Assembly: GCF_003334305.1 (NCBI RefSeq) | Contig: NZ_QOWS01000011.1 | Source of the DNA: Escherichia coli | GTDB lineage: Bacteria > Pseudomonadota > Gammaproteobacteria > Enterobacterales > Enterobacteriaceae | DNA: 64,000 nt | Direction: 5' to 3' (one strand) | Part shown: in pieces, positions 41,503 through 44,313 of the stretch | How the letters are laid out: each line of letters starts with the position of its first letter | How positions within the stretch are numbered: the first letter of the stretch is position 1 | The notes under the pieces: model-generated | Databases searched by the model: none | The model's input: only the letters and a program-made list of their open reading frames with translations | Told to the model about the DNA's origin: nothing | Made by a program: the position numbers and the translations under genes

Positions 41503-41529
41503 TTATCGGCCTGAATTGCGCAAAGTTTA
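41503..41529 (-). promoter_or_regulatory. sigma28 (FliA) class-3 promoter of fliDST
   Basis: Minus strand TAAACTTT, 11-nt spacer, GCCGATAA. Confidence 0.8.
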
Positions 41530-41621: not shown

Positions 41622-41648
41622 TAAAGGTTGTTTTACGACAGACGATAA
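41622..41648 (+). promoter_or_regulatory. sigma28 (FliA) class-3 promoter of fliC
   Basis: TAAAGGTT, 11-nt spacer, GACGATAA, about 75 nt upstream of the fliC ATG. Confidence 0.8.
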
Positions 41649-41724: not shown

Positions 41725-43431
41725 ATGGCACAAGTCATTAATACCAACAGCCTCTCGCTGATCACTCAAAATAATATCAACAAGAACCAGTCTGCGCTGT
41801 CGAGTTCTATCGAGCGTCTGTCTTCTGGCTTGCGTATTAACAGCGCGAAGGATGACGCCGCAGGTCAGGCGATTGCTAACCGTTTTACTTCTAATATTAA
41901 AGGCCTGACTCAGGCTGCACGTAACGCCAACGACGGTATCTCCGTTGCGCAGACCACTGAAGGCGCGCTGTCCGAAATCAACAACAACTTACAGCGTATT
42001 CGTGAACTGACGGTTCAGGCTTCTACCGGGACTAACTCCGATTCAGATCTGGACTCCATTCAGGACGAAATCAAATCCCGTCTCGACGAAATTGACCGCG
42101 TATCCGGTCAGACCCAGTTCAACGGCGTGAACGTACTGGCGAAAGACGGTTCGATGAAAATTCAGGTTGGTGCGAATGACGGCCAGACTATCACTATTGA
42201 TCTGAAGAAAATTGACTCTGATACGCTGGGGCTGAATGGGTTTAACGTTAACGGCAAAGGTACTATTGCGAACAAAGCTGCTACAGTCAGCGATCTGACC
42301 GCTGCTGGTGCAACGGGAACAGGTCCTTATGCTGTGACCACAAACAATACAGCTCTCAGCGCTAGCGATGCACTGTCTCGCCTGAAAACCGGAGATACAG
42401 TTACTACTACTGGCTCGAGTGCTGCGACCTATACTTATGATGCGGCTAAAGGGAACTTCACCACTCAAGCAACAGTTGCAGATGGTGATGTTGTTAACTT
42501 TGCAAATACTCTGAAACCAGCGGCTGGCACTACTGCATCAGGTGTTTATACTCGTAGTACTGGTGATGTGAAGTTTGATGTAGATGCTAATGGCGATGTG
42601 ACCATCGGTGGTAAAGCCGCGTACCTGGACGCCACTGGTAACCTATCTACAAACAACGCCGGCATTGCATCTTCAGCGAAATTGTCCGATCTGTTTGCTA
42701 GCGGTAGTACTTTAGCGACAACTGGTTCTATCCAGCTGTCTGGCACAACTTATAACTTTGGTGCTGCGGCAACTTCTGGCGTAACCTACACCAAAACGGT
42801 AAGTGCTGATACTGTTCTGAGCACAGTACAGAGTGCTGCAACGGCTAACACAGCAGTTACTGGTGCGACAATTAAGTATAATACAGGTATTCAGTCTGCA
42901 ACTGCGTCTTTCGGTGGTGCGAATACTAATGGTGCTGGTAATTCGAATGACACCTATACTGATGCAGACAAAGAGCTCACCACAACCGCATCTTACACTA
43001 TCAACTACAACGTCGATAAGGATACCGGTACAGTAACTGTAGCTTCAAATGGCGCAGGTGCAACTGGTAAATTTGCAGCTACTGTTGGGGCACAGGCTTA
43101 TGTTAACTCTACAGGTAAACTGACCACTGAAACCACCAGTGCAGGCACTGCAACCCAAGATCCTCTGGCTGCCCTGGACGACGCTATCAGCTCCATCGAC
43201 AAATTCCGTTCATCCCTGGGTGCTATCCAGAACCGTCTGGATTCTGCGGTGACTAACCTGAACAACACCACTACCAACCTGTCTGAAGCGCAGTCCCGTA
43301 TTCAGGACGCTGACTATGCGACCGAAGTGTCCAACATGTCGAAAGCGCAGATTATCCAGCAGGCCGGTAACTCCGTGCTGGCAAAAGCCAACCAGGTACC
43401 GCAGCAGGTTCTGTCTCTGCTGCAGGGATAA
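41725..43431 (+). CDS. fliC: Flagellin (H antigen), 568 aa, non-K-12 central domain
   Basis: Conserved N-terminal ([20 protein letters not shown]...) and C-terminal (LSLLQG) flagellin domains flanking a long Thr/Ala/Gly-rich variable region. Confidence 0.95.
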
Positions 43432-43447
43432 TCGCCTGATTACGCGC

Positions 43448-43472
43448 AAACCCCGCTCCGGCGGGGTTTTTT
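43448..43472 (+). terminator. fliC intrinsic terminator
   Basis: AAACCCCGC TCCG GCGGGGTTTTTT hairpin with U-tract. Confidence 0.9.
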
Positions 43473-43560
43473 ACAATCGGCTTTTTGCGTAACCCCCAAA
43501 TAACCCCTCATTTCACCCACTAATCGTCCGATTAAAAACCCTGCAGAAACGGATAATCAT

Positions 43561-43568
43561 GCCGATAA
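43561..43568 (+). promoter_or_regulatory. Candidate sigma28 -10 element upstream of fliA
   Basis: GCCGATAA 25 nt upstream of the fliA GTG; no good -35 located. Confidence 0.4.
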
Positions 43569-43593
43569 CTCATATAACGCAGGGCTGTTTATC

Positions 43594-44313
43594 GTGAATT
43601 CACTCTATACCGCTGAAGGTGTAATGGATAAACACTCGCTGTGGCAGCGTTATGTCCCGCTGGTGCGTCACGAAGCATTGCGCCTGCAGGTTCGACTGCC
43701 CGCGAGCGTGGAACTTGACGATCTGCTACAGGCGGGCGGCATTGGGTTACTTAATGCCGTCGAACGCTATGACGCCCTACAAGGAACGGCATTTACAACT
43801 TACGCAGTGCAGCGTATCCGTGGCGCTATGCTGGATGAACTTCGCAGCCGTGACTGGGTGCCGCGCAGCGTGCGACGCAACGCGCGTGAAGTGGCACAGG
43901 CAATAGGGCAACTGGAGCAGGAACTTGGCCGCAACGCCACGGAAACTGAGGTAGCGGAACGTTTAGGGATCGATATTGCCGATTATCGCCAAATGTTGCT
44001 CGACACCAATAACAGCCAGCTCTTCTCCTACGATGAGTGGCGCGAAGAGCACGGCGATAGCATTGAACTGGTTACTGATGATCATCAGCGAGAAAACCCG
44101 CTACAACAACTGCTGGACAGTAATCTGCGCCAGCGGGTGATGGAAGCTATCGAAACGTTGCCGGAGCGCGAAAAACTGGTATTAACCCTCTATTACCAGG
44201 AAGAGCTGAATCTCAAAGAGATTGGTGCAGTGCTGGAGGTCGGGGAATCGCGGGTCAGTCAGTTACACAGCCAGGCCATTAAACGGTTACGCACTAAACT
44301 GGGTAAGTTATAA
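43594..44313 (+). CDS. fliA: Flagellar sigma factor sigma28
   Basis: 239-aa ORF from a GTG start, sigma70-family regions 2-4. Confidence 0.95.
   Translation: MNSLYTAEGVMDKHSLWQRYVPLVRHEALRLQVRLPASVELDDLLQAGGIGLLNAVERYDALQGTAFTTYAVQRIRGAMLDELRSRDWVPRSVRRNAREVAQAIGQLEQELGRNATETEVAERLGIDIADYRQMLLDTNNSQLFSYDEWREEHGDSIELVTDDHQRENPLQQLLDSNLRQRVMEAIETLPEREKLVLTLYYQEELNLKEIGAVLEVGESRVSQLHSQAIKRLRTKLGKL

Follow-up and report, generated by a model that had tools for sequence, protein, structure and literature searches.

A short fliC 3′UTR of Escherichia coli with a conserved intrinsic terminator and apparently without the small RNA FliX

The 3′ end of the fliC mRNA of Escherichia coli K-12 gives rise to the small RNA FliX, which is processed from this transcript, depends on sigma-28 and binds Hfq; it was reported as a band of approximately 200 nt, accompanied by a second band of approximately 100 nt, FliX-S, which includes one of the REPs located 3′ of fliC (PMC10578931). 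Published cloning primers place the 5′ end of FliX at TTGTAACCTGATTAAC, 3 nt past the K-12 stop codon, and that of FliX-S at GAATTTGCACATTTTTGTAGG (PMC10578931). As cloned, FliX is 196 nt long and spans two REP elements and, directly before the terminator, the seed GUCAGCAACGUGC. The loss-of-function seed mutation M1 (primer SM644) converts GTCAGCAACG into GTCACGTACG immediately 5′ of the terminator, and pairing was described with the coding sequences of rpsS, rplC, rpsQ, and fliC itself (PMC10578931). A sequence-only reading of the DNA analysed here, a 64-kb stretch of an E. coli genome (hereafter, the window), had pointed to the end of its fliC gene as the place from which FliX was described in K-12, in agreement with the published location (PMC10578931), and had suggested that the copy of FliX in this strain be compared.

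The flagellar genes of the window were ordered fliD (− strand), fliC (+ strand), and fliA (+ strand), followed by ORFs matching K-12 fliZ and tcyJ. The fliC ORF (41725–43431, + strand; stop codon TAA at 43429–43431) was intact and encoded a flagellin of 568 aa, which matched the NCBIfam model NF005953 (FliC/FljB flagellin) with 814.7 bits (cut-off 619). As to the H serotype of this flagellin, NCBIfam returned only the generic FliC/FljB family, and the record names of its relatives carried no H label. The sequence TAAAGGTT-N11-GACGATAA at 41622–41648 (+ strand) was read as the intact sigma-28 (class 3) promoter of fliC. The sigma-28 consensus is TAAAGTTT-N11-GCCGATAA, and the promoter fits it; given a promoter of this type, the 3′UTR would be transcribed within a sigma-28-dependent fliC mRNA. 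On the other strand, 41503–41529 held the sole exact match to TAAA-N15-19-GCCGATAA in the 64 kb, the sigma-28 promoter before fliD, divergent from fliC. No promoter-like site was found on the + strand inside the 3′ end of fliC, which leaves an independently transcribed 3′ sRNA unsupported. A TTG-initiated ORF of 79 aa (43210–43449, − strand) runs antisense to the fliC 3′ end and into the 3′UTR spacer; it had no supporting feature and is probably spurious.

The 41 nt at 43432–43472 constitute the whole fliC 3′UTR, from the first base past the stop codon to the last U of the U-tract, as the sequence-only reading had assumed. A 16-nt spacer, UCGCCUGAUUACGCGC (43432–43447, + strand), stands where K-12 has the body and seed of FliX and is unrelated to that seed. 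It is followed by the intrinsic terminator AAACCCCGC-UCCG-GCGGGGUUU with its U6 tract (43448–43472, + strand), identified by its fold and by the conservation of its stem. The hairpin (43448–43469) begins 16 nt past the stop codon on the same strand and comprises six G-C and three A-U pairs capped by a tetraloop, with arms at 43448–43456 and 43461–43469, a GC core at 43451–43456 and 43461–43466, the loop UCCG at 43457–43460, and the U6 tract at 43467–43472. The 41-nt RNA was predicted to fold into this hairpin with −19.0 kcal/mol (z −3.2), a value reached by none of 200 dinucleotide shuffles; with the context widened to 56 nt, the terminator gave −21 kcal/mol (z −2.2). A simple terminator scan flagged the site as well, which is not significant alone, given 10 sites found vs. 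6.5 ± 2.5 expected. The Rfam scan of the window returned only sub-threshold matches (istR, rsmX, RsmY, and P9), which were rejected as family evidence because they cover generic terminator hairpins only.

Conservation provided the best argument for the terminator, stronger than either the fold or the scan. We aligned 23 distinct fliC 3′UTRs, i.e., six E. coli alleles and 17 sequences from other Enterobacteriaceae, representing six or more genera, including Citrobacter, Enterobacter, Leclercia, Buttiauxella, and Pluralibacter. Nearly all of them retained the sequence of the CCCCGC...GCGGGG stem and the tract of six to seven Ts, whereas loop and spacer varied, as did the 17 nt past the U-tract. 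Changes within the stem were limited to two sequences with a one-sided C-to-U substitution that preserves G-U pairs and to a few broken cells beside the loop gap. No compensatory changes or covariation were detected in the stem among the 23 sequences, because the stem hardly varies; its support thus takes the form of sequence conservation only. Taken at the level of sequence, the comparison confirmed the hairpin at 43448–43472 as a real and deeply conserved terminator, and the strong intrinsic terminator expected by the sequence-only reading was borne out both by the fold and by this conservation.

Downstream of the terminator, the next gene on the same strand is fliA, encoding sigma-28 (43594–44313, + strand), an ORF annotated as fliA in homologous records. 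The fliC-fliA intergenic region measures 162 nt in the window and 320 nt in K-12. Its distal part, the upstream regulatory region of fliA (43489–43593, + strand) with a GCCGATAA box at 43561–43568, was identical to that of K-12 and invariant in all columns of an eight-sequence alignment. Between the two lies a variable junction (43473–43488, + strand) that differs among E. coli alleles. The 16–17 nt from the U-tract to GTAACCCCC were hypervariable among E. coli alleles as well as across genera; the 105 nt next to fliA, in contrast, were identical in the eight E. coli sequences aligned, which produces a sharp boundary. Both the fliA control region and the tracts swapped in recombination between flagellin alleles probably have their edge at this boundary.

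Alignment to the K-12 fliC 3′UTR, which the sequence-only reading had proposed as a check, showed that within the 3′UTR only the first few bases (UCG..CCUGAUUA) and the terminator are homologous, and that the body of FliX is absent; homology resumes at GTAACCCCC and extends to fliA with 100% identity. Approximately 157 nt of K-12, comprising both REPs and most of the single-stranded seed segment, had no counterpart in the window. At the position of the seed, the window reads CCTGATTACGCGCAA and K-12 reads GTCAGCAACGTGCTT, and the window sequence opposite the M1 site and seed is CCUGAUUACGCGCAA. The seed GUCAGCAACGUGC had no match anywhere in the 64-kb window with up to three mismatches allowed. 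REP palindromes were absent from the fliC-fliA intergenic region of the window and present in that of K-12, O157:H7, E2348/69, and E. albertii. In agreement with this, the K-12 FliX control matched the REP-type Rfam families ES036 and naRNA4, which the window did not; since K-12 FliX itself is recognised by none of the Rfam 15 models, the failure of the window to match one is uninformative. Judged by its sequence, the window allele encodes no FliX in the K-12 sense, and FliX-type regulation would presumably be absent from this strain. The suggestion that this strain carries a FliX copy to compare was thus right about the place and about a real terminator, but there is no copy, since approximately 157 nt, both REPs, and the seed are missing.

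Pairing predictions were made with ViennaRNA duplexfold against the S10-operon genes of K-12, i.e., with K-12 target sequences. The algorithm permits long internal loops, which inflates the energies obtained with a 51-nt query, and these were left out of the results. The K-12 seed region was predicted to pair with rpsS nt 243–268 at −23.3 kcal/mol, weakening to −17.8 kcal/mol with the M1 mutation, consistent with the published footprinting (PMC10578931). The window spacer did no better than shuffled sequences against rpsS (−11.2 kcal/mol, z +1.0) and rpsQ (−15.6 kcal/mol, z −0.6) in the duplexfold predictions. Against rplC it reached −19.3 kcal/mol (z −1.6), which was matched in 17 of 200 shuffles, at a site other than that predicted for the K-12 seed. 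These predictions gave no sign that the ribosomal targets of FliX are retained in the window spacer. They also bear on the possibility that the locus encodes a true FliX orthologue which, despite its short form, represses fliC and the S10-operon mRNAs as in K-12. The shared locus, the homologous terminator, and the sigma-28-driven parent mRNA would fit such an orthologue, but the very seed nucleotides whose M1 mutation abolishes FliX function are absent, as are the REP and the body, and the pairing with rpsS and rpsQ is at shuffle level and that with rplC is marginal and displaced. On sequence grounds this reading is already contradicted, and we regard it as barely credible.

To place the short 3′UTR within the species, 5426 complete E. 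coli genomes were considered. The junction between the end of fliC and fliA was present in 5380 of them, the 196-nt FliX of K-12 was covered to at least 80% in 3503, and the 48-nt block of seed plus terminator was present in 3509. Approximately 1870 genomes (~35%) had the junction but no FliX seed, and ~65% carried the insertion of roughly 160 nt. Short 3′UTRs ending in the same terminator were found in MS14385, in the ST131 strain EC958 (with a flagellin of 349 aa), in an O111:H8 strain, and in GPEC874, CE10, and 2013C-4282; each of these representatives has its own spacer of 16–19 nt, and none has the FliX seed. O157:H7 and EPEC E2348/69 had the long form known from K-12, and in both the seed was intact. 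Detection of FliX by RIL-seq in EPEC was accordingly rejected as evidence on the short alleles, since E2348/69 carries the long one with its seed intact.

The exact 3′UTR version of the window was rare, with two genomes matching at 99% or more (one of them strain A7, from an orangutan) and ~197 at ~91%. The central region of fliC was 99.5–100% identical in IAI39, CE10, MP1, and A7, and at least 95% identical in 86 genomes. In 2013C-4282, CE10, IAI39, and MP1, the same flagellin central region (42300–43100) was accompanied by a different spacer, TCGTCTGAATGCCTCTC; the spacer of the window was closer to that of Enterobacter than to the one in these same-flagellin strains. The combination of a shared flagellin core with different short spacers indicates that the 3′ end of fliC is mosaic.

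Outside E. coli, one genome per species was searched with a degenerate pattern for the fliA N-terminus, yielding 71 loci, 34 of which had a flagellin C-terminus directly upstream of fliA. The intergenic length was 162–164 nt in 27 of these 34, including loci of Citrobacter, Enterobacter, Leclercia, Buttiauxella, and Pluralibacter with the spacing seen in the window, and 172–175 nt in five; the only long regions were those of E. albertii (302 nt) and of one Enterobacter (326 nt). The spacers of Enterobacter hormaechei and E. quasihormaechei, TCGCCTGATTACGCTT, matched that of the window at 14 of 16 positions. By comparison, only 5–9 of the 18 nt past the terminator matched Enterobacter, and 91–94 of the 100 intergenic nt next to fliA did so; third codon positions of the adjacent CDS were 74–82% identical to Enterobacter, the C-terminal flagellin codons themselves being highly conserved. 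Because the short form is found across the family, it is presumably ancestral and the FliX-bearing form looks derived. From the alignments, the derived insertion is best described as a REP-spacer-REP block with its flanks, the seed lying in the 3′ flank. The insertion may either be old within Escherichia or have been moved by recombination. The short alleles of E. coli may have been kept all along or may have come back in with flagellin alleles of foreign origin.

The two long regions outside E. coli and the Salmonella locus are described here in their own right. Escherichia albertii NBRC 107761 had a long, REP-containing fliC 3′UTR with a seed-like CUUGUCAGCAACCUG, a hairpin without U-tract, and an in-frame stop in the flagellin frame (..KAN*VPQQ..); by its sequence, this fliC/FliX locus looks to be decaying. 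The 326-nt region of Enterobacter sp. R1(2018) contained two copies of a CCCCGCTCCGGCGGGG hairpin, the first followed by only T4 and then by ATTGTCAGCAAAG, which resembles the core of the K-12 seed, UUGUCAGCAA; the region may represent an independent expansion of the fliC 3′UTR. In Salmonella enterica subsp. diarizonae, the fliC 3′UTR of ~57 nt ended in an unrelated terminator, GGCAGC-GAAA-GCUGCC-U6, ahead of an ORF other than fliA. By the known gene order, the gene downstream of fliC in Salmonella is fliB. With a different downstream gene and an unrelated 3′UTR, Salmonella is not homologous at this locus and was rejected as a comparator. An RNA named FliX was detected in Salmonella by RIL-seq (PMC10578931); since the diarizonae 3′UTR is unrelated, that RNA is unlikely to be homologous in sequence to FliX of K-12.

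A short 3′UTR could still be the source of a distinct RNA of ~38–41 nt, cut near the stop codon, in which the spacer would act as seed and the terminator as Hfq module, and whose targets would differ from those of FliX. Processed 3′UTR sRNAs of ~40–60 nt exist, for instance SdhX and CpxQ. The 5′ end of K-12 FliX, 3 nt past the stop codon, falls within sequence common to the window (UAAUCG|..CCUGAUUA), the spacer is left unpaired in the predicted fold, and it is identical to that of Enterobacter at 14 of 16 positions. These points are weakened by the wide differences of the spacer among E. coli alleles, even among those with the same flagellin type, which argue against a conserved seed, and by a level of conservation that is not clearly above that of synonymous sites. 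Judged from general Hfq-binding requirements, the Hfq module would moreover be marginal, the U-tract being only 6 nt long with no U-rich stretch before it. An Hfq-associated RNA from the fliC 3′ end was nevertheless recovered in Salmonella (PMC10578931), whose 3′UTR, as seen in diarizonae, is short and unrelated. On balance, we consider a distinct small RNA of this size unlikely.

The spacer could instead act in cis. The sequence UAAUCGCCUGAUU, formed by the stop codon and the spacer (43429–43441), is complementary to GGUCAGGCGAUUG at ~41859–41872, corresponding to fliC nt ~135–148 in the part that encodes the N-terminus. Pairing with these codons (~45–50), which would close the fliC mRNA from 5′ to 3′, or alternatively with a local CCAGG ~45 nt upstream, could modulate the stability or translation of the fliC mRNA. 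The distal match consists of 13 consecutive pairs (10 Watson-Crick and three G-U), ranked first among 277 windows in the fliC gene of the strain itself, and was equalled in only 2–4 of 200 shuffles; this corresponds to a chance of ~0.01–0.02, uncorrected for the several targets that were tried. The same site ranked 1–5 in the loci with a TCGCC-type spacer (L021, L029, L061, and L066, from Enterobacter, Buttiauxella brennerae, and Leclercia). Among the four TCCTGA-type loci it ranked 1–6 in L015, L027, and L068 and 18 in L079, and with the Citrobacter-type spacers and most of those of Buttiauxella it ranked only 6–89. Common descent, and not repeated independent evolution, accounts for most of the match, and the target site is held in place by conservation of the protein. 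Chimeras between the 3′ end and the 5′ part of fliC are abundant in K-12 RIL-seq (PMC10578931), although there the FliX seed explains them. The local alternative appeared in the minimum free energy (MFE) structure of 43372–43472. The complementarity between spacer and fliC is a weak lead, not a finding, and we hold a cis-acting role to be very improbable.

In the MFE structure of the 3′UTR together with the final 60 nt of the CDS, CCUGA of the spacer paired with the CCAGG of ...AACCAGGUACC..., and between them the conserved C-terminal codons formed a CAGCAG/CUGCUG hairpin (z −3.7). A CCUGA(U/C) motif recurred in the fliC 3′UTR spacers of many genera.

One could speculate further that the ancestral short 3′UTR, as found in the window strain, Enterobacter, Leclercia, and some Buttiauxella, used UAAUCGCCUGAUU to pair with fliC codons ~45–50, either in cis or as an Hfq-bound fragment of ~40 nt, and that this older autoregulatory device was overwritten by the REP-borne FliX in K-12-like strains. 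We think this quite improbable; if true, the control of flagellin and ribosomal-protein mRNAs would differ from that of K-12 in about one-third of E. coli, ST131 among them.

The reading we prefer, and consider very probable, is that 43448–43472 is the Rho-independent terminator of a monocistronic, sigma-28-dependent fliC mRNA and that, together with the spacer at 43432–43447, it forms a short 3′UTR allele of 41 nt that is not FliX. The GC hairpin and U6 tract would release RNA polymerase ~17 nt before it reaches the conserved control region of fliA. Transcription presumably ends at the U-tract, and such termination would shield the fliA promoter and the fliAZ-tcyJ operon from the very heavy transcription of fliC; the hairpin would also give the fliC mRNA a protective, stabilising 3′ end. 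Three observations sit less comfortably with a plain terminator. The contrast between 14 of 16 matches to Enterobacter in the spacer and 5–9 of 18 past the terminator could indicate constraint, the excess being small given third positions at 74–82%. The complementarity of stop codon and spacer to fliC nt ~135–148 hints at a function beyond termination. Finally, the Salmonella RNA named FliX in RIL-seq (PMC10578931), together with the short 3′UTR of diarizonae, implies that short fliC 3′UTRs may bind Hfq.

The terminator is itself ordinary and of a known kind; the polymorphism of FliX is a modestly useful side result. No report of a presence/absence polymorphism of FliX in E. coli was found in the literature searched. 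FliX has been characterised only in K-12, and ~35% of complete E. coli genomes are without its insertion; consequently, conclusions on FliX control of flagellin and of the S10 ribosomal operon are not transferable to such strains. Short-allele strains (EC958, O111:H8, the IAI39/CE10 type, and the window strain) offer natural fliX-null backgrounds.

Compared with known systems, the window shares with FliX and FliX-S of K-12 its location in the fliC 3′UTR upstream of fliA, the homologous CCCCGC..GCGGGG hairpin with U-tract, the homologous first bases UCG..CCUGAUUA, and a sigma-28-dependent parent mRNA. It differs in length (a 3′UTR of 41 nt vs. 196 nt cloned in K-12), in the REP/BIME sequences and the seed GUCAGCAACGUGC, which the window lacks, and in its U-tract (U6 vs. 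U7 in K-12). As with the processed (type II) 3′UTR-derived Hfq sRNAs CpxQ, SdhX, and SroC, an intrinsic terminator closes the mRNA and is a potential Hfq module; in contrast to these, a conserved seed is not evident in the fliC 3′UTR of the window. The other short E. coli alleles (EC958, O111:H8, MS14385, and the CE10/IAI39 type) have the same terminator and a different spacer. In the short loci of other Enterobacteriaceae (Enterobacter hormaechei, E. quasihormaechei, Citrobacter, Leclercia, and Buttiauxella), the stop codon is likewise followed by a spacer of 16–19 nt and the AAACCCCGC-loop-GCGGGG-T6 hairpin within an intergenic region of 162–164 nt; these differ from the window by a few substitutions in spacer and loop and by 17 unrelated nt past the U-tract.
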